Below are positions 1 through 14,631 of a stretch of 14,631 bases of DNA, piece by piece. The stretch lies in IMG/VR virus record IMGVR_UViG_2671180727_000007, positions 1 to 14,631 of that record, one strand, 5' to 3'. Position 1 is the first letter of the stretch. Each line of letters begins with the position of its first letter. Under the pieces are notes generated by a model. It was given only the letters and a program-made list of their open reading frames with translations, did no database searches and was not told where the DNA came from. This DNA is from a virus. Taxonomy: Duplodnaviria > Heunggongvirae > Uroviricota > Caudoviricetes. Both the position numbers and the translations under genes were made by a program.

Positions 1-98
<98 letters not shown>

Positions 99-129
99 TA
101 ATAAAGAAAACCCGCCTGTTGGCGGGTTT
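99..129 (-). terminator. Intrinsic terminator-like hairpin (stem AAACCCGCC / GGCGGGTTT, loop 117..120) with a T-rich tract on the minus strand; weaker on the plus strand
   Basis: 9-bp GC-rich inverted repeat at 108..116 and 121..129; minus-strand downstream sequence is TTTTCTTTATT. Sits immediately inside the left terminal repeat boundary. Confidence 0.45.
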
Positions 130-404
130 ATAAAGAATTATGGCGCTTGTTGAGGAAGTCACTCCTCTTACGCACTTTGTTTTGCCATGCCGGCAGTTAG
201 CTTCTGCCTTTGACTATTCATGCGGCAACCCCGCATTTCGCCACAATGGGCAATTCACTTTTATGGAATAAACTGGCCGTTGTGTCGATTTAATTAGCAT
301 GGCCTTACCATGCTAATTTATTCAACTTGTACAATCCTACAAATCTATCCACTCAGGCTTACACCGTCTTCGTTATTGTAGAAATGAGGATCATCAGCGT
401 TGAA

Positions 405-620
405 TCAGCTTAGAGCAACGACATTTGCTGCTGCTGGGCCTTTAGCCCCATTCTCGATAGAGAATTCGACCTGCTGGCCTTCTTCCAAAGTGCGGAAATT
501 ATTACTCTGAATTGCCGAAAAATGTACAAAAACATCTTTACTGCCATCAGCAGGAGAAATAAAGCCAAAGCCTTTATCAGAGTTAAACCATTTTACTAAA
601 CCAGTCATTTTATTAGACAT
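405..620 (-). CDS. CspA-family cold-shock protein (70 aa + stop)
   Basis: Translation [38 protein letters not shown]... carries the RNP1/RNP2-like motifs (KGFGFI, VFVHF) of the E. coli CspA/B/G/I family. Internal ATG at 618..620 is preceded by AAGAAGG 7 nt upstream; the 103-aa form in the ORF track is a leader read-through. Confidence 0.88.
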
Positions 621-835
621 AGATATTACCTTCTTAATTTTGTGAGCCACATAGTGCGGCGAGAATTTGATCTGTATAGATTGGGACTTACTTAGGCACT
701 TAAGGAGGAGACTCACGAAGAAGGGAAATCAGAAGATAACACTGAACTGAGACTGCTTTACTAAAACTGCTTACATAAGGTCTGTCTTGCAAACCAACGA
801 TGCTATTAACGCATACCCCTTCTTTTCATGCAACC
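621..835 (-). promoter_or_regulatory. csp promoter and long 5' leader with cold-box-like element
   Basis: On the minus strand: -35 TTGCAT (828..833), 18-nt spacer, -10 TTAATA (804..809), then a leader starting ~TTGGTTTGCAAGACAGACC (779..797) that resembles the cspA cold box as I recall it, giving a ~180-nt 5' UTR as in cold-shock genes. Confidence 0.55.
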
Positions 836-949
836 TTTATTTTTCAAAGATAACTAATTTTTGTCACCATTGGTTTAGTAAACGTTAACGAACCAGACGA
901 TGCCAGACACCTTTACAGAGAACAGATGCCCGCCAATTGGCGGGCATCA

Positions 950-1513
950 TTATGCGCATTTCGCAATATCTTTGCGGCGTTTAATCAGTTTCTCCGCAAT
1001 TTGCTCTATTTCGTTGAAATCTTTCGAGACGCTGTTTCGAAGCGCCAGATTCCATTTACTCAAAGTTCGGGCATTTTGGACAATTTGATCGCCCTCTTTA
1101 AGTCTTCCGTTATTCATGAGCCATTCAGCCACATCAGCCCAATCCCAGAGAGGAGACTGGCCTTTTATGCGTTGTACAGGGCAAGGGAAGTCGCCGCTTC
1201 CGCGCTTACCGTCTTTGAGCAACGCCACTGCCTGGCGAGACAGGTCTGTCAGTTCCGCGATATCGCTTAAGCCCACAAGAGCCGAGTCGACGGATTCAAC
1301 AATTGCACCGATACCGGCTGATTCAATATTGTCGACCGCAGATGCGATAGCTGCATCAAGTGATTGTGCTTCGCGGTCAAATTCTACATAGACGGAGTTT
1401 CCATATGCGCAAATTAGCGCATCGTCACAGCCGTTTTGGTACAGCGCGTCTTCCAGTCCTTCCGTCTCATACGATACGCCTGAGAGCGTCAGAGTGAAGT
1501 TATAAAGCGCCAT
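950..1513 (-). CDS. Hypothetical protein (187 aa); C-terminal region looks helix-turn-helix-like; second gene of a two-gene operon
   Basis: ORF with ATG at 1511..1513 preceded by AGGAAA 4-5 nt upstream; the track's 199-aa form starts at a TTG 12 codons earlier. No family recognised from sequence. Confidence 0.6.
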   Translation of the reverse strand: MALYNFTLTLSGVSYETEGLEDALYQNGCDDALICAYGNSVYVEFDREAQSLDAAIASAVDNIESAGIGAIVESVDSALVGLSDIAELTDLSRQAVALLKDGKRGSGDFPCPVQRIKGQSPLWDWADVAEWLMNNGRLKEGDQIVQNARTLSKWNLALRNSVSKDFNEIEQIAEKLIKRRKDIAKCA

Positions 1514-1573
1514 AGTTTTCCTTTGAAGATAGTTGGACAGTTTCTGCAAAAGGCGGCTAATGCCGCCTTGAAA

Positions 1574-1798
1574 TCATTTACAACGATCAACCATTCGTTT
1601 GATCTGTTTGGCATGGTTTTCGGGATTACCCGGAGTCGACCATACGCTCATTTGGTGAGTTTTGTGTTCACCTTCTGGATTACCGCATCGCAGTCTGCAA
1701 AAACAATGTGCAGCACCACCAGCTGCTACCCAGATCCAGCCTTTACTTAATGCATAGTCAATGGCTGCTTGAATATGCTTATTCGGATGTTGCTTCAT
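1574..1798 (-). CDS. Hypothetical small Cys/His-rich protein (74 aa); first gene of the operon
   Basis: ATG at 1796..1798 with GGAGG SD (complement of 1802..1806) and a consensus promoter immediately upstream; contains an HCFCRLRCG cluster. Family not recognised. Confidence 0.6.
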   Translation of the reverse strand: MKQHPNKHIQAAIDYALSKGWIWVAAGGAAHCFCRLRCGNPEGEHKTHQMSVWSTPGNPENHAKQIKRMVDRCK

Positions 1799-1815
1799 TC
1801 GCCTCCGATAATAGT

Positions 1816-1845
1816 ATTCTATTCACAGTGTTGACATCTGTCAAC
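1816..1845 (-). promoter_or_regulatory. Near-consensus sigma70 promoter (TTGACA-17 bp-TAGAAT) for the minus-strand operon, with the -35 embedded in a 16-bp perfect palindrome GTTGACA-TC-TGTCAAC (1830..1845)
   Basis: -35 is the complement of 1839..1844, -10 the complement of 1816..1821, spacer 17 bp; the palindrome overlapping the -35 is operator-like. Confidence 0.65.
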
Positions 1846-2010
1846 GGCGACTGAATTTCATCCGTTCATGCCACACCCCCATCCATCTCATGTATGTGAC
1901 CTAAAGATGGTCAGCACAGCTTACCAAAATAAGACAACTAATTATCTTCGGTGATCTCAATATTTTCCCCTGAACAAAGTTGACATGACGCCATAAACCC
2001 GTTCTCTGTT

Positions 2011-2019
2011 TGATATAAT
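2011..2019 (+). promoter_or_regulatory. Extended -10 promoter element TGaTATAAT, candidate promoter of the plus-strand recombination operon
   Basis: TG at 2011..2012 and TATAAT at 2014..2019; the -35 at 17-bp spacing is poor (CCATAA), and a TTGACA at 1980..1985 is too far upstream to pair. Confidence 0.4.
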
Positions 2020-2052
2020 TGATACAGATTTTATAAGTAGGAACCTATTAGA

Positions 2053-2484
2053 GTGAACACTGATATTTTTTCTAAAATCATGGCCGATCTGGAGTTCGAC
2101 CGCGACAACCTTGAGGAAGTATGGCGTAAACAGCCACGGCTTTTAATGGAGTATGGGTCAAAACTAGCGCAGGCAGATCGAGATGTCGCAGAGGCAAAAC
2201 TTAACCTTGAAGCTGTTGAAGCAAAGCTATACGACACAGAGCGTAAGAACTTGAGTATGAACGGCATTAAGTTCAACGAGTCTGTACTGGACGCTAAGGT
2301 TAAAACAAACCCACAGTATCTGTCTAAACGGCAGAAGTTGGATGAAGCACGGCACATCGCAGACATATACAAACATGCTGTCGCCGCCTTTTCGCATCGC
2401 CGAGACATGATCGTTCAGGCGTCAAAGATGGCCATCGTTGAATTAGAGCGATTAGGCTCTGAACGCTTTATTACTCCCCGTTGA
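2053..2484 (+). CDS. Hypothetical coiled-coil protein (143 aa), possibly a UvsY-like recombination mediator
   Basis: GTG start at 2053 with AGGAA 9 nt upstream (an internal ATG at 2080 has no SD). Size, predicted helical character and position next to gp32-like and UvsX-like genes; sequence resemblance to T4 UvsY is loose and from memory only. Confidence 0.5.
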   Translation: MNTDIFSKIMADLEFDRDNLEEVWRKQPRLLMEYGSKLAQADRDVAEAKLNLEAVEAKLYDTERKNLSMNGIKFNESVLDAKVKTNPQYLSKRQKLDEARHIADIYKHAVAAFSHRRDMIVQASKMAIVELERLGSERFITPR

Positions 2485-2601
2485 TTTTTGATAGATAATA
2501 AGTAAGTACTGATCTATCATTTAACAGCTCGAAAGAGCCACGAATGAACGAAAGCCCAACGCGCATAGCGCCATCGGCCAAATCACAACAAGGAGAAACA
2601 C

Positions 2602-3630
2602 ATGTCTAAGACATTACTTGATTTGCTTAACAAAACTCGTGAAGACATTGCCGCCAAACGTGGCAACAACGTTGATCTGACTCGCTTAAAAGACGGCGTC
2701 AACTATATCCGCATCTTCCCGAATAAAGACGACCCAAACGGTAAGTTCTTCCAGACTTTCGGTATGCACTACGTTAAGTATCAGAACGAGGAAGGTAAAG
2801 AAGCAACCAACGCTTATATTTGTGAGCAACATACTCACGGTCGCGCTTGTCAGCTATGCGAAATGGTTATGGAAGGTCGCGCTCGTCACAAGGGTAACAA
2901 AGCAATGGAAGAACGCATCGGTCAAATGCGTGCCACTCCTCGCTACCTGGTCAACGGCATTCTTTCTGCTCGTGAGGATTTCGCAGATGCTGAGAAATGC
3001 CAGTTAATCGAGCTGCCGTCTACTGTATTCGATGATATCTGCAAAGCAATCACCGAAGACATCGCTGATGATATCGGCAATCCACTGAGCAAAGAGGAAG
3101 GCTACGCATTCCTGATTAAACGTACTGGCTCTGGTCGCGATACCAAATATGACGTCTCGCCTAAGCGTAAAGTCTACAAAGGCGATATCGAAGATAAATT
3201 CTGGAACACCCAGCATGATCTGATCGCATACGCAAATCAGGCTGATGAAACTCGTCTTCTGTCGACAGTTCGCACTATGGGTCGTCTGATTGGCATCGCT
3301 GCACCAACTGCCGCAGCATCTGCACCAGCAATTTCCTCAACCGCGAAAACATCGGCTGCGGCACTACCTGGATTTGGCTCTGTCACTGGTCATACGGAGG
3401 GTGCGACTGCTGTAGCAACCGCTCACACCCCAGCTTCTGAACCAACCAGTCTGGTTGATGAAGAAATCCTCCGTGCCGTTGAAACTGAATTTAAACCAGA
3501 AGCAAGTTCCGCTGCCGTTGCCGTATCAGTCAAAGAGTCTGAAGCAGTCGCAGCGACATCTGTAGCAACCGCATCTGCGACGGAAGATGAAGGTCTGGAT
3601 GACCTACTGAGAGAGCTGGACTCTCTGTAA
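2602..3630 (+). CDS. gp32-like single-stranded DNA-binding protein with zinc-binding motif and acidic C-terminal tail
   Basis: GGAG SD 7 nt upstream of ATG. Cys74-X8-Cys83-X2-Cys86 with nearby His residues (CEQHTHGRACQLC) resembles the T4 gp32 Zn subdomain; C-terminus TEDEGLDDLLRELDSL is acidic as in SSBs; residues ~231-330 are Ala/Ser/Thr-rich low complexity. Confidence 0.7.
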   Translation: MSKTLLDLLNKTREDIAAKRGNNVDLTRLKDGVNYIRIFPNKDDPNGKFFQTFGMHYVKYQNEEGKEATNAYICEQHTHGRACQLCEMVMEGRARHKGNKAMEERIGQMRATPRYLVNGILSAREDFADAEKCQLIELPSTVFDDICKAITEDIADDIGNPLSKEEGYAFLIKRTGSGRDTKYDVSPKRKVYKGDIEDKFWNTQHDLIAYANQADETRLLSTVRTMGRLIGIAAPTAAASAPAISSTAKTSAAALPGFGSVTGHTEGATAVATAHTPASEPTSLVDEEILRAVETEFKPEASSAAVAVSVKESEAVAATSVATASATEDEGLDDLLRELDSL

Positions 3631-3646
3631 TCCCATTACGTGACCA

Positions 3647-3675
3647 GTAAGGCGTCTACGGACGCCTTACTTTTT
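3647..3675 (+). terminator. Rho-independent terminator after the SSB gene
   Basis: Stem GTAAGGCGTC (3647..3656), loop TACG, GACGCCTTAC (3661..3670), followed by TTTTT. Confidence 0.7.
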
Positions 3676-3690
3676 GGAAGGAATGTACCG

Positions 3691-4635
3691 GTGAATTATC
3701 TCTTCGTAGATGGCAATAGCCTGGGTTATTACCACCAACAATCTGACAAATTGCACAACGGCGAAATGGAAGTACAGGCTGCTTTCGGCTTTGTTAAGAA
3801 CGTCCGTCGTTATGCCTCCATCCTCCATGCCCGACCTATGATTCTTTGGGATGGATTTAGTGACAAGCGTCGCGACTTTTACCCGGACTACAAAGCAAAT
3901 CGCGACGACGATCCTGATATGAAAAAGATGAAGGAAGGCTTTGCTGTCCAGAAGCCATACATCCTCAAAATGATGACCGCGCTTGGTGTTAACCAAATCA
4001 TTGCAAAAGATGCAGAAGCGGATGATCTGGCCGGGCTGCTGGTATCCCGCATGGCACCGCAGCCAACCGTTGAACACATCTATCTGTTAACAGGCGATAG
4101 CGACTGGCTTCAGTTAGTTCGTGAAAACGTAAGCTGGGTAAGCCTGCGTGAAGACGCCAAAAACAAGCAGGTTAATTTTGAGCAATTTGCGGAGCTGACA
4201 GGATTCGCCACGCCTCGCGCATTTTTGGAAGCAAAAGCATTACAAGGCGATAACTCGGACAACATTAGCGGTGTTGGAGGCATTGGTGCTGGCGGTGCGA
4301 AAGAGCTGCTGCATGAATGGGGAAGTGTCGCAACGATGGTACGCGGCATCAACGACGGCTCAATCGTGGTTAATAAAGGGCGTCATAAGACCGCCTTCAA
4401 CAAACTAGCGAAGAATGCCTTCAACGAGAAAACAGGCTGTCGAATGCTCGAAGCGTTCAAGAGAAACATCACGCTAATGAACCTGATTGAGACGAAGTTT
4501 CCGCCTACCGAAATCGAAACAATCAAAGGCAATCGTGACGTGAAAGCATTCGAGCAAATGTGCTACGAGCTGAATTTCCGTTCGTTCCTTGAAGACCTTG
4601 AAGTGTTTGTTCTTCCATTCGAAAGGTATTGCTAA
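3691..4635 (+). CDS. 5'-3' exonuclease / flap endonuclease (T4 RNase H-like, FEN family)
   Basis: Motifs LFVDGNSL, RRDFYPDYKANR (cf. T4 RNase H RRDFAYYYKKNR), AEADDLAG, LLTGDSDW and an H3TH-like GVGGIGAGGA. GTG at 3691 with GGAAGG 9 nt upstream is preferred over the in-frame ATG at 3640, which lies inside the preceding terminator hairpin. Confidence 0.85.
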   Translation: MNYLFVDGNSLGYYHQQSDKLHNGEMEVQAAFGFVKNVRRYASILHARPMILWDGFSDKRRDFYPDYKANRDDDPDMKKMKEGFAVQKPYILKMMTALGVNQIIAKDAEADDLAGLLVSRMAPQPTVEHIYLLTGDSDWLQLVRENVSWVSLREDAKNKQVNFEQFAELTGFATPRAFLEAKALQGDNSDNISGVGGIGAGGAKELLHEWGSVATMVRGINDGSIVVNKGRHKTAFNKLAKNAFNEKTGCRMLEAFKRNITLMNLIETKFPPTEIETIKGNRDVKAFEQMCYELNFRSFLEDLEVFVLPFERYC

Positions 4636-4901
4636 TGCTTAAATCGATTATCAATGGCGCTACAACCACCCCTGCCCAACTAGCAAAAGAGATTGTCTTT
4701 TATCACGGTGAGTACGCTGTCATCGCACTGCCGTCAATTCTAGGCGCTGCCGGAATGAAAGCGACAGATCGCGAGTTTGGATTAGTCAGCGAGCAGGTCG
4801 TAAAAATCCTCGCTCGTGTATCCAGACTCCTTAACCACGATGCGATTGTATTCGATGAATCCGCCGCTTTAAAACGAATCAACGAAACAAAAGGAGCCTG
4901 A
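4635..4901 (+). CDS. Hypothetical protein (88 aa), translationally coupled to the exonuclease gene
   Basis: ATG overlaps the exonuclease stop (TAATG) with GAAAGG 8 nt upstream; ends 2 nt before the recombinase ATG. Confidence 0.5.
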   Translation: MLKSIINGATTTPAQLAKEIVFYHGEYAVIALPSILGAAGMKATDREFGLVSEQVVKILARVSRLLNHDAIVFDESAALKRINETKGA

Positions 4902-4903
4902 TC

Positions 4904-5977
4904 ATGGCAAAAGGAAAATCCGCACTGGCACTTGCTCTGAAAAAGAAAATCGGTAGCAACGACGAAATTCAGAAAGTAACTCATTGGATTGATACAGGCT
5001 TTCCACCGTTAAACAAAGCTATTTCTGGTCGTTACGATGGCGGCTTCCCATGTGGTCGTATCGTCGAAGTATTCGGTCCTCCAAGTGCAGGGAAAACGTT
5101 CCTTGCAACAGCAGCGATGATCTCCGCTCAAAAACAAGATGGTCTGGCGGTATTCCTCGATCATGAAAACAGTTTTGACGTTGGCCTGGCTGTCGCCAAT
5201 GGCCTGAACGCAGATGAGGATGACGGTCAGTGGGTATACAAGCAGCCAGATACCTTCGAAGACTCTGTAGAGTTGATCGGCACAATACTTAAATTGGTTC
5301 GTGATGAAGAGCTTATCCCCGAATCAGCACCAATCTGTATCGTGGCTGACTCTCTTGCGTCTATGGTTCCGAACTCCAAAGCCGAGAAGTTCGAAAAGAT
5401 GGCTGAAGGCACTGCCAAAGACAAAGATCAGCTAAACATGAACGACAATACGGCACTGGCTCGTGCGACGAGTGCGAACTTCCCTACTCTGGCTTTGTGG
5501 GCACGCAAATACAACGCCTGCATCATCTTCTTGAATCAGGTTCGCACAAAAATCGGTGTAATGTTTGGCGACCCTACTACGTCGCCAGGTGGAGATTCAC
5601 CGAAGTTCTACGCTTCTGTACGTATCCGTCTTGGTGCATCGGTGATGAAGGATGGTAAAGAGAAGATCGGCCAGGACGTAGGCGCAGAATGCATCAAAAA
5701 CAAAGTTGCACCACCGTATGGCAAATGCACCTGGAAATTCTACTTCGATCCTACTCGTGGCCTCGACGTTATCGAATCGCTCGTCGAGTACATGCTGGAA
5801 GAAGGATACCTGCCAAAGAACGCCAGCGGGCGAGTTGAAATTGGTGACAAGAAATACACCAAATCGCAGATCGTCGAGATGTATCGGGAGAAGCCACTGG
5901 CTGAAATCATTGCGGCTTTGCAGGCAATCGACGACCGAAGAGCAAAAGACAACCCCACCGAGTCAGTAGAAGAGTAA
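4904..5977 (+). CDS. RecA/UvsX-family recombinase
   Basis: Walker A GPPSAGKT (RecA: GPESSGKT), AVFLDHENSFD, Walker B-like ICIVADSLASM; GGAG SD 7 nt upstream of ATG. Confidence 0.8.
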   Translation: MAKGKSALALALKKKIGSNDEIQKVTHWIDTGFPPLNKAISGRYDGGFPCGRIVEVFGPPSAGKTFLATAAMISAQKQDGLAVFLDHENSFDVGLAVANGLNADEDDGQWVYKQPDTFEDSVELIGTILKLVRDEELIPESAPICIVADSLASMVPNSKAEKFEKMAEGTAKDKDQLNMNDNTALARATSANFPTLALWARKYNACIIFLNQVRTKIGVMFGDPTTSPGGDSPKFYASVRIRLGASVMKDGKEKIGQDVGAECIKNKVAPPYGKCTWKFYFDPTRGLDVIESLVEYMLEEGYLPKNASGRVEIGDKKYTKSQIVEMYREKPLAEIIAALQAIDDRRAKDNPTESVEE

Positions 5978-5982
5978 ACACA

Positions 5983-6006
5983 AGGCGTCCACAGGACGCC
6001 TTTTTT
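5983..6006 (+). terminator. Rho-independent terminator after the recombinase gene
   Basis: Stem AGGCGTCC (5983..5990), loop ACA, GGACGCCT (5994..6001), then TTTTTT. Confidence 0.75.
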
Positions 6007-6011
6007 ATCTC

Positions 6012-6040
6012 TTGAAAATATATAAGCACTTACTTATTAT
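6012..6040 (+). promoter_or_regulatory. Sigma70-like promoter TTGAAA-17 bp-TATTAT upstream of the membrane/SPFH operon
   Basis: -35 at 6012..6017, -10 at 6035..6040, 30 bp upstream of the ATG at 6070. Confidence 0.5.
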
Positions 6041-6069
6041 TTTCGCATAACAACCACATAGGAAAACAC

Positions 6070-6270
6070 ATGATCAAAATCTATCTATTGGCAGTAGCCA
6101 CAGGCCTTTCAGTGGCTCTCATCTACGGTTTACTGGTTCCGTCGCTGATTTCTACCAAGAGTGATTTAGCCGTCATGTTTGGAGTTATCGTTGGTTTTGG
6201 TGCTCCTGTAATCGGTCTTATTGCTGGTCGTAAGTTTATCAACTCACTAATCAAAGCAAAGGGGAAATAA
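6070..6270 (+). CDS. Small membrane protein with two predicted TM helices (66 aa)
   Basis: Two hydrophobic stretches (LLAVATGLSVALIYGLLV; VMFGVIVGFGAPVIGLIAG); AGGAAA SD; ends 3 nt before the SPFH gene. Confidence 0.55.
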   Translation: MIKIYLLAVATGLSVALIYGLLVPSLISTKSDLAVMFGVIVGFGAPVIGLIAGRKFINSLIKAKGK

Positions 6271-6273
6271 GTA

Positions 6274-7104
6274 ATGAAGAAAGGTTTACTTGCAGTTGCT
6301 CTGGCGGCTATTTGCACAATGGGTCTTACTGGCTGTGATCGCGTGGAGCCTGGATACGTTGGCATCAAAGTAAACAAATTAGGTGAAGACAAAGGGATTG
6401 GTGAAGTGGTTGGCGTTGGTCGCCAATGGACAGGTCTTAACACCGAACTTTACGTATTCCCGACCTTCAAACAAATGAAGACCTACGACGAGCCGTTCAC
6501 ATTCCAGATGAGTGACGGTACTGCTATTGGTCACAAAATTGGCGTTGCGTATCTGGTTAATCGTGACAAGGTAACGACGGTGTTCCAGACCTATCGCAAA
6601 GGCGTAGACGATATCACCGAATCAGATCTGCGTCAGAAAATTGCCGACTCTCTAAACCGTTTGGCCAGCCGTATGACCACTGACTCATTTATCGACGGTG
6701 GTAAGGCACAATTGCTGGACAACGCACTGAAAGATATTCAGAAAGAGATGTCTCCGGTTGGTATTGAGGTACTGAGCCTGTCATGGGTTGGAAAGCCTGA
6801 TTACCCAAAAACTGTCATTGAATCTATTAACGCCAAAGTAACGGCTAACCAGCGTACTCTGCAACGTCAGCAGGAAGTTGAACAACGTAAAGCTGAGGCG
6901 AATATGCTACGTGAACAGGCTAATGGTGAAGCTGATGCTATCCGTGCTCGTGCGCAAGCAGAAGCAGACGCCATTCGTCTGCGCGGTGAAGCTCTGCGTC
7001 AAAACCCGAACGTTATGGAACTGGAAGCCATCAATAAATGGAATGGCCAGTTACCGCAGTACATGACTCAAGGGGCTAACACTCCTTTCATTACAGTGAA
7101 ATAA
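6274..7104 (+). CDS. SPFH/band-7 (prohibitin/HflK-like) domain lipoprotein
   Basis: N-terminal signal peptide with lipobox LTGC; central SPFH-like region; C-terminal coiled coil with AEADAIR repeats typical of stomatin/HflKC proteins. Confidence 0.75.
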   Translation: MKKGLLAVALAAICTMGLTGCDRVEPGYVGIKVNKLGEDKGIGEVVGVGRQWTGLNTELYVFPTFKQMKTYDEPFTFQMSDGTAIGHKIGVAYLVNRDKVTTVFQTYRKGVDDITESDLRQKIADSLNRLASRMTTDSFIDGGKAQLLDNALKDIQKEMSPVGIEVLSLSWVGKPDYPKTVIESINAKVTANQRTLQRQQEVEQRKAEANMLREQANGEADAIRARAQAEADAIRLRGEALRQNPNVMELEAINKWNGQLPQYMTQGANTPFITVK

Positions 7105-7120
7105 CTCCCCTAAAAAGTTC

Positions 7121-7145
7121 AGGCGTCCAGTTGGACGCCTTTTTT
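7121..7145 (+). terminator. Rho-independent terminator after the SPFH gene
   Basis: Stem AGGCGTCC (7121..7128), loop AGTT, GGACGCCT (7133..7140), then TTTTT; same stem as the terminator at 5983. Confidence 0.75.
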
Positions 7146-7195
7146 ATCGCAATTATCTTATTAAGAAAACAATTTGTTTAAAAGGATAAGAAAAC

Positions 7196-7621
7196 ATGAC
7201 AGCTATTAAGAAACTCTACGATGCCGCAAACGTGGCTCTGGATGTTATTGATGATGAAGTAGCAAAAGGCTTTCCTGAACCTGATTGGGCGCATCAGCTA
7301 CGAAACGCTATCGCAGAAATGACCCCACCAGATCCAACCCCCGACGAGACAGACTGGCAGCGATTCATCCGTATGTACGCTCAGGAAATAGGTCCAACGC
7401 CAACGGCAGAGCAGGCAATGCTGCTGAAATACTTCAAAGAGGCGGGAGAGGATTTACCAATTGATGACTCAGCATATTGGTTCCACTGCGCATGGCGTAA
7501 GTATGACGTGATATTCACACAAGGCATGGGAAGCAAAGATATGGTTGTGTGGCATCTACTCCATATAGACACAGCCGTTGACAGAGTTATTGAACAGTTT
7601 TTCCCTAAACAAGAAGATTGA
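7196..7621 (+). CDS. Hypothetical acidic protein (141 aa)
   Basis: ORF with AGGA SD 8 nt upstream; Asp/Glu/Pro-rich; no recognisable family. Confidence 0.6.
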   Translation: MTAIKKLYDAANVALDVIDDEVAKGFPEPDWAHQLRNAIAEMTPPDPTPDETDWQRFIRMYAQEIGPTPTAEQAMLLKYFKEAGEDLPIDDSAYWFHCAWRKYDVIFTQGMGSKDMVVWHLLHIDTAVDRVIEQFFPKQED

Positions 7622-7676
7622 TCGCCTATTCATAACTAACAAAATAAGTAAACACTAACCACAAAAGGAAAAACAC

Positions 7677-7952
7677 ATGAGAGTTTTAGTTCGAATCGTT
7701 ACCAGCACTGTCTATGACGTGTTTCCGCTTTTTATGGTCAAAGCCGATGGCCTTAACGACGAAGAAACTGACGCGCTGATCCAGCGTATTCTCGTTGAAT
7801 ATACAGGTCATGACGCTGATTCAGTGATGGTTGATGATGATGGTGTTTGTTGGCATAACGGCAACTGTTGGTACGTAGAAGAGACTCAACAAATCAGTGA
7901 TGAAGATGCCGAACATCTTGAGCGTATTTTAAGCATCAGCACTTTTGAGTGA
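7677..7952 (+). CDS. Hypothetical highly acidic small protein (91 aa)
   Basis: ORF preceded by the conserved AAGGAAAAACACATG initiation context; roughly 24% Asp+Glu. Confidence 0.55.
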   Translation: MRVLVRIVTSTVYDVFPLFMVKADGLNDEETDALIQRILVEYTGHDADSVMVDDDGVCWHNGNCWYVEETQQISDEDAEHLERILSISTFE

Positions 7953-7991
7953 GTTTACAGTAAAATTTATATAAGTTAGTATCTACCTATC

Positions 7992-8171
7992 ATGAAGATT
8001 TTTATTGAATACTTGTTACTCATCGTTTCAATAGCTTTTGTCATCGACTGCATTTTCACTGGTGTCATTCGTAAAGTCTTTTCCCCGGTGCACGACGTAG
8101 TCATAAACGCTTTGGCTATCGTGCTCGTATTTAATTCAGCATTTGATGTAATCAAAGAGGTGGCAGCATGA
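7992..8171 (+). CDS. Putative small hydrophobic membrane protein (59 aa), below the ORF-track size cut-off
   Basis: My own translation: MKIFIEYLLLIVSIAFVIDCIFTGVIRKVFSPVHDVVINALAIVLVFNSAFDVIKEVAA; stop overlaps the next ATG (ATGA). No clear SD. Confidence 0.4.
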   Translation: MKIFIEYLLLIVSIAFVIDCIFTGVIRKVFSPVHDVVINALAIVLVFNSAFDVIKEVAA

Positions 8172-8503
8172 AGGCCATCCCATTCGCGCTGTTGTTCCTT
8201 TCTTCGATCGTTGTGGCCGACACCACTGTTTATCAGTGTGAAATGTCTGTAGCCGACGTTAAGAATGGCGCTCTTACCGACGTCATAAAAGCACCATATG
8301 GAGCGATGGTCGTAGACAGCGGCGACCAGTTCTATGTTGTGCGTGACGATCGAGTGTTGTCATCCCCATATCTCACAAATCGTAATGGCAAATTAACCGG
8401 CGTCGGAGAAGACCACTTCGTATACAACAAATACAAGGGCTTCTATGGCGTTCACGCTTCTCAGCAAAGCTACCTTTTCGATGACTGCAAGGAGGTTGGA
8501 TAA
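8168..8503 (+). CDS. Hypothetical secreted protein (111 aa) with N-terminal signal peptide
   Basis: MKAIPFALLFLSSIVVA-DTT has a signal-peptide profile; GAGG SD upstream. Confidence 0.6.
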   Translation: MKAIPFALLFLSSIVVADTTVYQCEMSVADVKNGALTDVIKAPYGAMVVDSGDQFYVVRDDRVLSSPYLTNRNGKLTGVGEDHFVYNKYKGFYGVHASQQSYLFDDCKEVG

Positions 8504-8715
8504 TGGCATTAACACTGGCAGGTCTGGAAATCGAGAAAACAAGCGGCTACTGGCGTGCTAAGGGTTTCAAGCAGCCTGGCATTCTTGAGCGTCTGGAACG
8601 TGAAGATGGGTATATCGTCCACCAGCGGCGTGAATGGCGTATGTACGATCCAGAAACAGGAAAACTGACTACAAAAGCCGGAACACTTTGGGGTCTGTTG
8701 AAGAAAATACACTAA
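8503..8715 (+). CDS. Hypothetical protein (70 aa), translationally coupled
   Basis: ATG overlaps the previous stop (TAATG); AGGAGG SD 9 nt upstream. Confidence 0.5.
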   Translation: MALTLAGLEIEKTSGYWRAKGFKQPGILERLEREDGYIVHQRREWRMYDPETGKLTTKAGTLWGLLKKIH

Positions 8716-8722
8716 TAGCACC

Positions 8723-9205
8723 AACCACTGCGGTGAGTAGTCTACTCACCGCATTCGTATCCAGCTCATTATCCACTGTAGTCAGTAACAAAACCTTCCT
8801 ACATATCTGCTAACCACTGTAGCGAGTAGACAGCCTTTCATTCGCATCAAACAACCACTATGGTGAGTATTGGAGTGAGATGTCCAGCGGGTATCCACTA
8901 TGGTGAGTAAGCCTTTGCTGTTTTCAGTGGATATCCACTCGCCACAGTGGATACGCTCAAAGATGAGGGCGACAACAACCACTATAGACAGTAAATTTTC
9001 CAAGATACCCAGTGACCACTAACCTCGCAGCCCTTGTTTCATCAGTGTTAGTGATCACTAACATTTAATTCAGTATTTGCATTCTACTGCCTACAGTGGT
9101 TATCAACAGATAACGATACTCACTATAGTGGATAGCGAATTACAGATATAAGTAAGGCTCACTACAGTGGATAGTGAGCCTTACTACTAACTACAGTGGT
9201 TGGGC
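8723..9205. repeat. Iteron array downstream of repA (incA-like control locus): about 8 copies of core AACCACTNTRGTGAGTA at ~40-bp spacing, then 4 copies in the opposite orientation (CTAYAGTGGWT), around a 16-bp perfect palindrome GTTAGTGATCACTAAC (9047..9062)
   Basis: CCACT cores at 8725, 8773, 8814, 8856, 8895, 8935, 8979, 9016; AGTGG cores at 9095, 9127, 9166, 9195; the same core as the upstream iterons. Confidence 0.8.
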
Positions 9206-10260
9206 TATTTGCGAGTCTTTGCCTTGCGCAACTCTTCGAGAAGCGCCAGTTCTTCTTTACTCAACATGACCATTTTGCCTTCTTTTTCGTCAGGCACAAC
9301 GTCGATAATGTCATCTTGATTCTCATCTGGGAGGCTATATTCCGTCTCATCATTATCGATTTTTGTTGATATTTGTGCCTGGCGTAACTTTGGCCGCCTA
9401 TAGTGGATGACGAAGTAGACCGAGTTTCCGCGCTTAACTTCCGTGTAATCGAGATATCCTATCTCTCGCAGCTGTTCCATAGCCTTTCTTACCGTCGCAT
9501 TCTGAGTAATAGTGCGACTTGTCAGATTAAGTCTGGCGCGTAAACGGGCTAGTGATATTGGTGCCGGATCAGGCGGCAAACTTTCAATAAAAGTATAAAG
9601 CGCCTGAGCGGATTCTTTTCTTGAGAGTTCGTTTATAGCCCGGAGTTGCAGAAGAACCTTTTTGTCGAACTGGTAGAGTTCGAAAATCTTGGGATCTGCT
9701 TTCAGTTCGACCGTATCGTGCTTGACACTATATTTTGCCGTTTGCACAAGATGCGTTACGTAAAACTCATCAGAGCCTTTGCTACGGAACGAGATGGTAT
9801 TTGTGGCAATACGGCTTAGCGAACTGTCCAGGCGTTTGCGTAACTTCGCTGATGACCTGGCGGTCGGAATGCCACACAGCCTTACAAACTCAACGAACGG
9901 CAACGTGACAGTATCGCCAACGACCTTGTGTTTGGCAAACGCGTGGATTATTCCCACCCACGTTTTAAAGTCGTTATCCATATCAAGCCGAAGGCCAGAG
10001 ATCCTTATGTCTTCGTACCCTTCGGCTTTTGCCAGAGACAGCTGTTTGAGTTCAGCAGAGGCATCCATAGAGACCATTTGCCCCTTTCTTCCTCTGGATG
10101 TCGATTTCAGCGTCGGAACGAAGAGGCCCAGACGCATCAAAGCAACAGGCTGAACAGTGTTATTAGTGTTAGGAACCAACGTAACAACTTCGCCTGTCTT
10201 TTTATCTGTTTCTGAAAATGCTTCAACGATCGCTATGTTTTTATTGCCGTTTTCGCTCAT
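9205..10260 (-). CDS. repA: Iteron-binding plasmid replication initiator RepA (RepFIB/P1 RepA-like family)
   Basis: 351-aa ORF flanked by iteron arrays. N-terminal [17 protein letters not shown] and later blocks ([30 protein letters not shown]; [29 protein letters not shown]; IGYLDY) match my recollection of RepFIB/P1-type RepA; not verified by search. Confidence 0.85.
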
Positions 10261-10305
10261 TCCAAATGTCTCTTGTTATTCGACGGCTTTGGTGGCCTTT
10301 GCTGA

Positions 10306-10428
10306 TTACAGTGGATAGTAGCACTCATCACAGCGGTTATCCTACCGTCTATAGTGGTTTTTCTCCTCTCTATAGTGGTTGCTTTGCTCCCTATAGTGGA
10401 TTATTCGCTCTCTATAGTGGATATCGAT
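10306..10428. repeat. Origin-proximal iteron array: six tandem ~21-bp direct repeats (consensus CTCTATAGTGGWT...)
   Basis: TATAGTGG at 10350, 10371, 10392, 10413 (exact 21-bp period), plus ACAGTGG at 10308 and ACAGCGG at 10331. Confidence 0.85.
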
Positions 10429-10470
10429 CATGTCTGAAGGCAGATGGCACAACGGTTTGAGGTGGGCGGG

Positions 10471-10520
10471 GATCTTATTGGGTCTTTATGGGTCTCTTTG
10501 GTTCTCTTTGTGATCTGAAT
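10471..10520. repeat. Five tandem 10-bp repeats (GATCTTATTG / GGTCTTTATG / GGTCTCTTTG / GTTCTCTTTG / TGATCTGAAT), DUE/13-mer-like, only two retaining GATC
   Basis: Exact 10-bp periodicity visible directly in the sequence. Confidence 0.7.
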
Positions 10521-10534
10521 TACTGGATCGGGCC

Positions 10535-10590
10535 TGTGGATAAAAATCAGAGAATTTCAAGAACAGGTAACTCTACTCTTCTGTGGATAT
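10535..10590. promoter_or_regulatory. DnaA boxes: TGTGGATAA (10535..10543, perfect consensus) and TGTGGATAT (10582..10590, 8/9)
   Basis: Match to the DnaA box consensus TTATCCACA / TGTGGATAA; further 8/9 matches at 10677..10685 (TTATCCATA) and 10908..10916 (AGTGGATAA). Confidence 0.7.
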
Positions 10591-10699
10591 TTAAGGACAT
10601 AAGAATCATGACTAAGAGTAGAGTTTAAAATATATCTATGTATATCAGTATGTTAATGAAGAATTAAGTCATTAAGTTATCCATAAAAGACAATGTGCT

Positions 10700-10810
10700 C
10701 TACTCTCTACAGTGGATATATACAGCTCTCCAGAGTGGTTGTTTTACTCTTCATAGCGGTTATTCAGCTCTCTACAGAGGTTTCTTTGCTCTCCATAGTG
10801 GATGGCAACA
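10700..10810. repeat. Second iteron array: five ~21-bp direct repeats, more degenerate
   Basis: CTCTACAGTGGATATATACAG, CTCTCCAGAGTGGTTGTTTTAC, TCTTCATAGCGGTTATTCAG, CTCTCTACAGAGGTTTCTTTG, CTCTCCATAGTGGATGGCAAC. Confidence 0.75.
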
Positions 10811-10848
10811 CCCTTTCAGACCAGTAACCGCAACGGCTAGAGGCGATC

Positions 10849-10910
10849 GGGGATCTCTTTGGATCTTCTATTTGATCTTACTTGGGATCTCTTATTTGGA
10901 TCTATCCAGT
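10849..10910. repeat. GATC-rich 11-13-bp repeats resembling oriC 13-mers (GATCTnTTnTTTT): five GATC sites
   Basis: GATC at 10852, 10862, 10874, 10886, 10899 within GATCTCTTTGG, GATCTTCTATTT, GATCTTACTTGG, GATCTCTTATTTG, GATCTATCC; followed by a DnaA-box-like palindrome TATCCAGTGGATA. Confidence 0.7.
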
Positions 10911-11003
10911 GGATAACTGGGATAAGTAAAACAGGCAAATGCAGATTAAGGTATGCCTAATGAGTTATCGTAGCATCGGCCAATAACTACTGAAAAAACG
11001 ATT

Positions 11004-11648
11004 ATGGATCTAAAACGCACGCGCTGGGTTCGTCGTCTTGAGGACGGCTCCTACACTATCGAATCAAATTCCAACCTGAATAAGCAGAAGTTACTTTGTG
11101 ATATCTGCGGTATAGCGGCGAAGTGCCCGATCTACGAAACCAGAATTAAACTTGATAAGGCTGGTGTGAACTTTCATTTGAATAGTTGTATCAGGTACGT
11201 TCCATTGCTCGCATTTCGTAAACCGATCATCGGATTGGATGCGCCCTACTTCAACACACTCCGTTCAGGGGTAACGTGGCGAGATCGTTTATCACCAGAC
11301 AAGCTGATTTGCCTCGTATCCGCAGACACAGGGAAAATCATCCGTTTTGGGAAAGTAGACAAGGTTTACTCAGGCCCAGTTGACGAGATGTTGCGGAAAC
11401 ACAGCCGGTTTAATCACCTCTGCATGGGTGGTGAGAAAATCGAGAAGGTTGAAGAAGTGATCCGCAAATCCTACGGACACTTCCTGACCAAAGATAGCCT
11501 GCTCACTGCAATCTACATCAGACATGTAAAACGTGAGTTCGACCTTGAATACCATAGCGAAGAAGAACTGAACCTTGTCGATCCACGTCCTAAAGCTGGC
11601 GTCATAAGCATAAATGCAGCGCGTAAAAAGCCCACTGACGCGCTGTAA
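11004..11648 (+). CDS. Hypothetical protein (214 aa) with an N-terminal Cys cluster (CDICGIAAKC)
   Basis: Long ORF, weak SD; no family recognised. Confidence 0.5.
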   Translation: MDLKRTRWVRRLEDGSYTIESNSNLNKQKLLCDICGIAAKCPIYETRIKLDKAGVNFHLNSCIRYVPLLAFRKPIIGLDAPYFNTLRSGVTWRDRLSPDKLICLVSADTGKIIRFGKVDKVYSGPVDEMLRKHSRFNHLCMGGEKIEKVEEVIRKSYGHFLTKDSLLTAIYIRHVKREFDLEYHSEEELNLVDPRPKAGVISINAARKKPTDAL

Positions 11649-11903
11649 CCCTCCAGATCGTATATTGGCGTAGATAGAATCTACGCCCCCCTCAAAATAG
11701 CTCTCATAGCGTTCTACAGTGATCCTGTCTTATTTTTAGTCATACAGACAAGCAAAGTTGCGCCACGATAAATAGGTATATACTTACTTATAAATTTTGT
11801 ATATTAAGGCGCTCGTTTCATTCCTAACATACCGTTATGCATAGTTGTTTACCTCCTCATTGCTCTTAGAATTTGTATCAAAATAACCACAAAGGAAAAA
11901 CAC

Positions 11904-12989
11904 ATGACTTTGCCATACGGCGTCATTTCTGACTGCCACTACCACAAATGGGATGCGTTCTCCACGACGAACGCTGAGGGGCTTAACTCCAGACTTGAAA
12001 TACAGTTGGAAGCAACGAAAGAAGCAGCCATCGCCATGAAGAAGGCCGGTTGTAAGTACATGTTGGTTGCCGGTGATACATTTCACGTCCGAGGAACTGT
12101 GTCCCCTTCTGTTTTGCATTACGTAACTGAAACGTACAAGTGGATTATCAACGAGCTTGATCTGACAGTAGTAATGCTGGCCGGTAATCACGATCTTGAA
12201 ACCAACGATTCAGTATATAGCGCCAACGCAGCAGCATCGCTGAGTTCTATCGGCGTGGTAATCGTATGTGGCAAGCGCCCACACTCAATAAAAATTGGCG
12301 ATGTGACTGTCCACCTGATTAGCTGGCGTAACAATCATGCGGAGCTTATCAGCGATCTGAAAGCATTACGTAAGAGCGTAGAAGGTGATAATCATGACGT
12401 TGTTATCCATACATCCATTAACAAAGCCATTCCAACAATGCCTGACGTCGGTATCGATGCGCAGGAGTTAAAGGATATCGGCTTTCGTCTCGTGCTTAGT
12501 GGGCATTACCACAACCACAAAGAGGTCATTCCTGGAGTTATCAGTGTCGGTGCACTGACTCATCAAAATTGGGGAGATGTTGGATCTCTGGCTGGCTACA
12601 TGATCGTAAACCCGGACGGCAGTTTCAGTCACTACGAAACCAGTGCGCCTAAATTCATTAACCTGGAAGATGATGTTGCTGATGACCAAATTCGCGGCAA
12701 CTACGTGCGTTTCCGCGCCGTAATTGAGAACGATGAAGAAGGCATTAAGTACCAGAACATCCTCAAAACAATGGGTGCAAAAGGTGTCGTGTGCAACTTC
12801 ATCCGTAAGTCATCAATGATGGAAGGTACAGCCAGCACAACTGAAACCAGCAAAATCGATAGCCTGGGAGAGTCGGTATCTGCTTATTGCAAGATTGTCC
12901 ACGATACTGACGGCGGATTTGATCTGAGCAAATTGGATATTTTGTGTCAGGAAATCCTCACCGAAGCGGAGAGTTCGGAGGCTGTGTGA
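11904..12989 (+). CDS. sbcD: Mre11/SbcD-like calcineurin-type phosphoesterase nuclease (T4 gp47-like)
   Basis: Metallophosphatase motifs in order: SDCHYH (D-x-H), AGDTFH (GD), LAGNHD (GNHD), SGHYHNH (GH-x-H); preceded by the AAGGAAAAACACATG initiation context. Confidence 0.85.
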   Translation: MTLPYGVISDCHYHKWDAFSTTNAEGLNSRLEIQLEATKEAAIAMKKAGCKYMLVAGDTFHVRGTVSPSVLHYVTETYKWIINELDLTVVMLAGNHDLETNDSVYSANAAASLSSIGVVIVCGKRPHSIKIGDVTVHLISWRNNHAELISDLKALRKSVEGDNHDVVIHTSINKAIPTMPDVGIDAQELKDIGFRLVLSGHYHNHKEVIPGVISVGALTHQNWGDVGSLAGYMIVNPDGSFSHYETSAPKFINLEDDVADDQIRGNYVRFRAVIENDEEGIKYQNILKTMGAKGVVCNFIRKSSMMEGTASTTETSKIDSLGESVSAYCKIVHDTDGGFDLSKLDILCQEILTEAESSEAV

Positions 12990-13218
12990 AGCAAAGTCGT
13001 TATGGGAGCTTTCGAGACTTTGCCATCACGATGAAAAGACTTGAACGAGGCCAGACGGTGATGTTTCACAAGCCCTACCCGCCACAAGGAAATCCCGTAG
13101 CGTTTTATCTTGGAAGGTTAACAAGAAAAGGCGTATTGAGGCGCAGATCCTTCCCGGCGCATACGGAGTTCAGATTGAAAGAAGGCCAAAAGCTAACACG
13201 CGGTATCAGAGGTGTTAT

Positions 13219-13222
<4 letters not shown>
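12986..13222 (+). CDS. Small, highly basic hypothetical protein (78 aa) coupled between the sbcD-like and sbcC-like genes
   Basis: GTG at 12986 overlaps the sbcD stop (GTGA) with GGAGG 5 nt upstream; its stop overlaps the sbcC ATG (ATGA). About 18 Lys/Arg against 4 Asp/Glu. The track's 92-aa form starts inside sbcD. Confidence 0.5.

Positions 13223-14631
<1,409 letters not shown>

Follow-up and report, generated by a model that had tools for sequence, protein, structure and literature searches.

What is a strongly promoted pair of genes, neither of which belongs to a named protein family, doing on a phage-plasmid? The question is raised by a 14,631-nucleotide (nt) stretch of viral DNA (positions 1 to 14,631 of the IMG/VR record IMGVR_UViG_2671180727_000007, Caudoviricetes; this whole stretch is referred to here as the window), in which a gene for a 74-amino-acid protein, here called A, is followed on the minus strand by a gene for a 187-amino-acid protein, B. 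Positions 850-2100 match Escherichia phage Cyrano at 99.6% identity; Cyrano is pLF82, an SSU5-like phage-plasmid carried by Escherichia coli LF82. The window as a whole shares 99.8% identity with plasmids of ~107 kb from E. albertii and E. coli. An earlier note on this DNA, written from its letters alone, had proposed an autorepressed module of the toxin-antitoxin or addiction type and had set no roles for the two proteins. That proposal now has circumstantial support from the conservation of an operator, the pairing of the two genes, the HicA-like fold of A, the recurrent decay of A and matches of both proteins to the PADLOC candidate system PDC-M06. We think it probable that the operon is an autorepressed type II toxin-antitoxin-like module, with A as the inferred toxin and B as putative antitoxin and autorepressor. 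The positions of its features are collected in Table 1.

The transcription unit is a simple one. The near-consensus promoter, the very short leader with its GGAGG ribosome site and the two-gene arrangement that the earlier note had described were all confirmed, and every one of these features lies on the minus strand, which that note had left unstated. A consensus scan scored the promoter 11/12 and ranked it as the top site within 700-2300, and the same layout, TTGACA followed 17 nt on by TAnnnT, was found at 66 anchored homologous loci. Transcription would be expected to start at ~1809, giving a leader of ~11 nt ahead of the ATG of gene A, and GGAGG or AGGAG occupies the equivalent position in homologous loci. 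In the window the operon consists of one promoter, one terminator and an A-B spacer of 60 nt. A promoter scan detected no separate promoter for B within A or 3' of the hairpin that lies between the genes, and an Rfam search of the operon returned no RNA family.

Circumstantial evidence for autorepression comes from the palindrome at this promoter. The earlier note had placed a perfect palindrome over the -35; the position is right, but the site is not a perfect 16-mer, having 7-bp arms around an asymmetric 2-bp centre. Taken within the window it is only mildly unusual, as 17 of 200 shuffles contained at least one match when up to two mismatches were allowed, and the argument that it exceeds chance is a comparative one. 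For this comparison 80 loci from different species were retrieved with a B profile, and gene A and its upstream region were located in each. Of the species-level loci, 71 have a recognisable start of A, and 66 of these contain an exact GTTGAC-N4-GTCAAC (a 6+4+6 core); its distance upstream from the A ATG ranges over 41-67 nt, and 65 of the 66 fall at 41-54 nt. The same core occurs in most of the viral loci, a set of viral contigs found with an A profile. TTGACA in the left arm also serves as the -35, the four central positions and both flanks are essentially unconstrained except for a symmetric Y/R pair beside the arms, and from genus to genus the site is kept while the sequence around it changes. 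The promoter makes no use of the right arm, yet this arm is invariant, which implies that a dimeric protein is bound there.

Loci lacking the exact core carry operator variants at one or two mismatches, among them GTTGAC-N4-GTTAAC with a single mismatch. Pasteurellaceae have GTTTAC-N4-GTTAAC, and the recognition helix of B differs there too. A metagenomic pair whose B is only 38% identical has GTTGAC-ATAT-GTAAAC, and in a much more distant pair beside an integrase (L150, the sole informative distant locus from single-protein scans of the wider family) a different palindrome, of 11+2+11, likewise lies over the -35. The window holds one single full operator match, with GTTGAC half-sites at chance frequency, which argues for autoregulation rather than a regulon, at least locally. 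The autorepression suggested earlier is thus supported circumstantially, by the conservation of the operator across genera, with binding and repression predicted on that basis. As a separate observation, one locus (L041, Enterobacter pulveris) carries the operator in tandem, as GTTGACATCCGTCAAC and GTTGACAGGCGTCAAC, 10 nt apart and ~43-70 nt upstream of A; it is the only locus seen with a duplicated operator.

The two genes also travel together. A lies directly upstream of B in nearly all loci, whether on phage-plasmids, in prophages or as an isolated pair in Providencia: the adjacency was found at 67 of the 80 B-anchored loci and at all 57 A-anchored viral loci (two of them with ambiguous B copies), each of the latter having a B-like gene directly downstream. 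Co-oriented, adjacent genes kept together across genomes are a general mark of type II toxin-antitoxin modules. Decay of the pair is one-sided. Among the 80 B-anchored genome loci both genes are intact in 67, A is dead with B intact in 11, both have decayed in 2, and none has an intact A beside a dead B; among the 57 A-anchored viral loci the corresponding figures are 54 with both genes intact, 1 in which A carries a nonsense mutation and B is intact, no clean case of the reverse, and 2 that are ambiguous. The 11 losses of A arose independently, by premature stop, frameshift or deletion, and 10 of these loci retain a canonical or near-canonical operator, the remaining one (L068) having lost its -10 together with the 5' end of A. 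In type II systems decayed toxins and orphan antitoxins are expected to be commoner than the reverse, as they are here (11 versus 0 of 80), and if A were a toxin, with B as its antidote and repressor, one would expect A to be lost again and again while B is kept. The opposite polarity, with B as toxin and A as antitoxin, was considered and rejected on the grounds that B persists alone in 11 loci. In L013, L017, L040, L065 and L068 gene A was lost by internal or near-complete deletion; at most of these loci the promoter, operator and ribosome site feed straight into B, making them natural 'antitoxin-only' derivatives.

Protein A has an isoelectric point of 9.5 and a charge of +6, and with four Cys and six His it is indeed the Cys/His-rich protein described earlier. 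The earlier note had recognised no family for either product, and Pfam and NCBIfam searches agreed, returning no match for A or for B; sequence-profile searches of the PDB gave nothing credible for either. A does match PHROG 5923, to which no function is assigned. Close homologues occur in Enterobacterales, Pasteurellaceae, Shewanella and Pseudoalteromonas, and an exhaustive profile search puts the family at no fewer than 747 representative clusters at 50% identity. The AlphaFold model of A (predicted local distance difference test, pLDDT, 88) runs in the order helix, two strands, short helix, strand, helix. Its best structural matches are HicA chains, and it has the alpha-beta-beta-beta-alpha fold of HicA, which resembles a double-stranded RNA-binding domain (dsRBD); a Foldseek search of A against the PDB gave no match. 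A sequence link of A to HicA cannot be shown. The HicA profile PF07927 did not match the window's A at E ≤ 0.1, nor any of 43 close members at E ≤ 10 or of 87 diverse members at E ≤ 1, while E. coli HicA, used as a positive control, matched it at 3e-7. Aligning the A family with an E. coli-type HicA alignment by hhalign gave only a short local match that is not collinear with the fold.

Conservation within the A family suggests both an active site and a metal site. The 87 diverse members all share H4, C38, P56 and C73, and nearly all have H31 and T55. A set of 205 family members has H31 in 199 cases, and in the same 205 the conserved candidate active-site residues are H4, K7, H31, T55, P56 and H62. 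C38 and C73, invariant in all 205, look like metal ligands, and in the window's A they are predicted to form a four-ligand site with H45 and H48. The remaining two ligands shift position across the family. In sequences of the window type the beta2-beta3 loop supplies two His, and no His follows C73. Where the loop offers one ligand only, 65 of 68 sequences place a His or Cys just past C73; where it offers two or more, only 23 of 112 do. This compensatory relocation argues for a genuine four-ligand metal site, which presumably holds structural zinc. Weak matches of A to the Pfam family RuBisCO_small, all below the cut-off (33 of 43 close members, best E 1.2e-4, and 16 of 87 diverse members), were set aside as chance motif resemblance. 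One NCBI record gives an A homologue the name 'ribulose bisphosphate carboxylase small subunit', which probably arose in error from that chance motif.

Protein B is modelled by AlphaFold in three parts (pLDDT 81). The helix-turn-helix that had been noticed towards its C-terminus is borne out, but not at the extreme C-terminus: it forms a central winged domain, and a helical hairpin comes after it. The DNA-binding domain is thus C-terminal to the putative neutralising domain, and the charge of -13.5 on the latter is complementary to the +6 of A. Residues 102-122, the wing (window ~1210-1148, minus strand), are invariant in sequence, yet they form the only segment with a pLDDT below 50; contact with DNA or with protein A may be needed for it to fold. 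B is at its most conserved here, with K100, G102, R104, G105, F109, P110, P112, R115, G118, S120, P121, W123 and W125 all invariant. Of 1444 Foldseek matches in the PDB (E ≤ 10), the best 50 are all generic ferredoxin, ACT, PII and S6 folds, with no HicB among those 50. None of 39 family members gave a Pfam match, PF15919 included, Phage_AlpA being matched weakly by 8 of the 39. B matches PHROG 2620, labelled 'excisionase and transcriptional regulator', at 2e-105 (PHROG 66 and PHROG 2790 carry the same label), and NCBI PGAP labels it as an HTH or AlpA-family regulator only; in RefSeq B is named 'helix-turn-helix transcriptional regulator' and A 'hypothetical protein'. An hhalign comparison of B with E. 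coli HicB returned a probability of 0.2%, and neither by sequence nor by fold does the N-domain of B correspond to that of HicB.

Between the two genes lies a stable hairpin that had gone unmentioned in the earlier note. Folding the first 45 nt of 43 distinct A-B spacers of at least 45 nt gave a median minimum free energy of -13.3 kcal/mol, with z ≤ -2 relative to shuffles in 29 of the 43. The stems are unrelated in sequence between loci and sit at the same place in most of the long-spacer loci. By eye several of them precede a T run and appear terminator-like, and the long perfect stems of the SSU5-type plasmids have no T run; an automated count of the T tails was noisy. Another 33 loci have a spacer shorter than 45 nt, and the shortest of these spacers (down to 0-3 nt) show little or no structure when folded, so that the hairpin is a frequent but optional part of the operon. 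It may act in attenuation, 3'-end protection or processing. Its presence fits a two-fold A:B ratio of RNA in strain LF82, where RNA sequencing during lysogeny put Cyrano A at 30-fold and B at 14-fold over the prophage background (PMC9928086).

A number of points weigh against reading the operon as a toxin-antitoxin module. Gene A has a better ribosome site than gene B, the hairpin comes after it, and its RNA reaches ~2x that of B. Such an excess of A is awkward for the model, since a simple toxin-antitoxin system should have its antitoxin in excess. The decay asymmetry, compared between samples that are anchored on different genes (B in genomes, A in viruses), could also fit an A that is merely dispensable beside a B with a use of its own. 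As to family, the Cyrano copies of A and B have been listed as the morons HicA and HicB, names that came via BLASTP transfer or Pfam (PMC9928086), and a collinear hhalign alternative, which pairs H31 of A with H23 of HicA, is not significant at E = 0.3. We infer toxicity, neutralisation and DNA binding by A and B from sequence, fold and conservation; the ribonuclease chemistry of A, the identity of its metal, contact between A and B, B as the operator binder and the lability of B are likewise proposed.

Some of these points would be accommodated by a non-toxic regulatory pair, in which B is an AlpA/MerR-like autorepressor, perhaps with targets in the host or plasmid, and A is a metal- or redox-sensing cofactor or an anti-repressor. 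An excess of A RNA suits a modulator better than a toxin, B on its own in 11 loci may well have its own function, the PGAP labels for B go no further than a regulator, and the metal site of the Cys/His-rich A could sense zinc or oxidation. We nevertheless judge such a pair unlikely. The 14.6-kb window has a single operator-like site, at the promoter of the operon itself, with half-sites at chance levels, and the best fold match of A is to a toxin family. The pair also turns up as an isolated cassette in unrelated contexts (phage-plasmids, P2-like prophages and the core chromosome), as is usual for selfish modules but not for dedicated regulators, and recurrent knock-outs of A in which the operator is kept look like the loss of a toxin.

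Could the operon instead be a divergent but canonical HicAB system, as its annotation in Cyrano has it, with A a true homologue of HicA and B of HicB? There are several likenesses. The putative toxin gene comes first; the first product is small, basic and alpha-beta-beta-beta-alpha, with a conserved His at the start of strand 2; the second product would combine a neutralising N-domain with a DNA-binding domain; and a palindromic operator at the promoter suggests autorepression. The differences are in the proteins themselves, and they make true homology very improbable. A and all 87 of its relatives miss PF07927, which E. coli HicA matches, and the local hhalign match to HicA does not follow the fold. 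A has an N-terminal HPNK motif and a four-ligand Cys/His clamp running from the beta2-beta3 loop to the C-terminus, and E. coli HicA and its close relatives are without the clamp. The N-domain of B is ferredoxin-like and not HicB-like, matching neither PF15919 nor, by hhalign, HicB itself, and for DNA binding B has a predicted winged helix of the AlpA/excisionase type with a helical hairpin behind it, whereas E. coli HicB has an Xre-type HTH_3 domain.

Comparison with other toxin-first modules is also instructive. In higBA and mqsRA the toxin gene comes first, and the antitoxin binds DNA and represses through a palindrome overlapping the promoter. The present operon resembles them in gene order and in its promoter-overlapping palindrome, if A is the toxin and B the repressor as proposed. 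Extra antitoxin-only promoters have been reported for higBA and mqsRA, whereas none was found in this operon, where a hairpin separates A and B. A further difference is that MqsRA carries its zinc site on the antitoxin rather than on the toxin.

The closest existing label for the locus is PDC-M06. A matches all six PADLOC PDC-M06A models (best 1.2e-19) and B matches PDC-M06B at 1.3e-32; with the two genes adjacent, the locus is by PADLOC's own models an instance of this system. PDC-M06 is one of 145 untested candidates, a two-gene cassette found by 'guilt by embedding', the PDC models having been derived from gene cassettes within BREX, DISARM and type I restriction-modification (RM) loci (Payne et al., bioRxiv 10.1101/2024.01.29.577857). 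The label comes without a mechanism, fold, operator or toxin/antitoxin assignment, and the window copy differs from those cassettes in being phage-plasmid-borne and outside any BREX, DISARM or RM locus. Literature searches on PDC-M06 and on toxin-antitoxin modules of SSU5 phage-plasmids found no functional study and no paper naming PDC-M06.

These matches raise the possibility that the operon serves primarily in anti-phage defence, by abortive infection or superinfection exclusion, rather than in plasmid addiction, although the mechanism could be the same. The origin of the models in defence-embedded cassettes speaks for this, as do the expression of the operon as a moron in lysogeny and the prophage homologues that adjoin other toxin-antitoxin modules. 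We regard a primarily defensive role as improbable nonetheless: the PDC systems entered PADLOC as candidates only, many chromosomal copies sit amid housekeeping genes with no defence island nearby, and Cyrano already has other toxin-antitoxin modules, which fits the stabilisation of a low-copy plasmid.

Returning to the toxin-antitoxin-like module that we favour, its working might be pictured as follows. The module would be carried as an autonomously expressed moron of an SSU5-type phage-plasmid, its near-consensus promoter transcribing A and then B. A would share the dsRBD-like fold of HicA and gain rigidity from a clamp of Cys and His around a metal, probably zinc; it would most likely act as an RNA-cleaving growth inhibitor through H31 with H4, K7 and H62. 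B would neutralise A through its very acidic ferredoxin-like N-domain and dimerise via the C-terminal helical hairpin, setting two winged helices on GTTGAC-N4-GTCAAC; with the operator covering the -35, the A-B complex would then shut its own promoter. Should the supply of B stop, because the plasmid is lost or because an infecting phage shuts off host transcription, free A would arrest the cell, and the outcome could be plasmid addiction, abortive-infection defence or both. The hairpin after A would probably tune the A:B transcript ratio or stabilise the A message.

A broader and more speculative picture can be offered, one that we hold only tentatively. In it A would stand for a large family of HicA-fold toxins with a metal clamp, comprising 747 or more clusters at 50% identity, and the partner of A for an undescribed antitoxin architecture, made of a ferredoxin-like neutraliser, an AlpA-type winged helix and a helical hairpin, that reads the near-invariant GTTGAC-N4-GTCAAC; the modules would serve phage-plasmid addiction and abortive infection, and the Cys/His site might tie toxin activity to zinc or oxidative stress. 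If the roles proposed here hold, PDC-M06 can be given a protein fold with a metal site and a probable active site, together with an operator and an assignment of toxin and antitoxin, and the near-invariant 6+4+6 operator becomes one half of a clean pairing between protein and DNA that could be studied or reused. SSU5-group phage-plasmids have been reported in multidrug-resistant Shigella sonnei and S. Typhi lineages, and on the same condition the module may help to explain how such low-copy elements persist or how they exclude other phages. No new principle is involved, autorepressed toxin-first modules with HicA-like toxins being well known.

Table 1. Features of the A-B operon, in window positions or, for the parts of B, in residues (a dot marks a feature given without strand).
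Feature	Position	Strand	Description
Operator	1830-1845	.	Inverted repeat GTTGACA-TC-TGTCAAC (7+2+7) overlapping the -35 and spacer; putative binding site of B
Sigma-70 promoter	1816-1844	-	-35 TTGACA (1844-1839), 17-nt spacer, -10 TAGAAT (1821-1816)
Shine-Dalgarno of gene A	1802-1806	-	GGAGG, 3 nt 5' of the ATG; read from sequence
Gene A	1574-1798	-	74 amino acids, ATG at 1798; basic, Cys/His-rich, predicted HicA-like alpha-beta-beta-beta-alpha fold; putative toxin
Intercistronic stem-loop	1550-1569	-	AAGGCGGC-AUUA-GCCGCCUU (also given as AAGGCGGC-loop-GCCGCCTT), 4 nt past the stop of A, then a weak U tract; predicted by folding
Ribosome-binding site of gene B	1519-1523	-	AAGGA, weaker than that of gene A; read from sequence
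Gene B	950-1513	-	187 amino acids, ATG at 1513, stop at 950; putative antitoxin and autorepressor
B, N-domain	residues 1-78	-	Predicted ferredoxin-like beta-alpha-beta-beta-alpha-beta, isoelectric point 4.05, charge -13.5
B, DNA-binding domain	residues ~80-135	-	Predicted AlpA/excisionase-type winged helix-turn-helix
B, C-terminal part	residues 143-186	-	Predicted helical hairpin
Intrinsic terminator	925-948	-	End of operon; strong hairpin, 10-bp stem with 8 G-C pairs and a T-rich tail (terminator scan); perfect 12+12 inverted repeat

The genes around the operon encode a UvsY-like mediator, a gp32-type single-stranded DNA-binding protein, a 5'-3' exonuclease, RecA/UvsX, an SPFH protein, RepA and Mre11/Rad50-like proteins, which places it in the part of an SSU5-type phage-plasmid that is devoted to replication and recombination. 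The pair has the same neighbours on phage-plasmids throughout: the DNA polymerase III alpha gene on one side and the uvsY-like gene on the other. Elsewhere it is found in a P2-like prophage beside a YefM/YoeB module, next to integrases and, in Providencia, as an isolated cassette amid housekeeping genes. The operon was found in 110 of 5,426 complete E. coli genomes (~2%), plasmid-borne every time.

Directly downstream of the operon, on the same strand, is a cold-shock gene (380-798, minus strand, the coding sequence ending at 405; CSD domain at E 4e-33). It carries a full-length cspA thermoregulator 5' untranslated region (Rfam RF01766, 185.7 bits against a gathering threshold of 78), which gives the phage-plasmid a temperature-sensing csp gene. 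On the other side, the divergent uvsY-like gene (2079, plus strand) has an apparent extended -10 promoter, TGaTATAAT at 2011-2019. A TTGACA at 1980-1985, 28 nt upstream of this -10, is too far off for a normal -35; it belongs to a lone GTTGAC half-site 135 bp from the operator.

The RecA/UvsX gene (4904-5977, plus strand) encodes 357 amino acids and is intein-free in the window. Its counterparts in Cyrano and in an Enterobacter phage-plasmid (L001, 13054-15393, and L085, 1548-3890) encode 780 amino acids, the Enterobacter copy having intein and LAGLIDADG domains, and several near-identical plasmids have LAGLIDADG or Hint insertions in the RecA/UvsX region. A few kilobases from the operon lie a Rep3-type RepA initiator gene (9205-10260, minus strand) and a gene for a P1 Cra-like regulator (8503-8715, plus strand), the latter as annotated in Cyrano.

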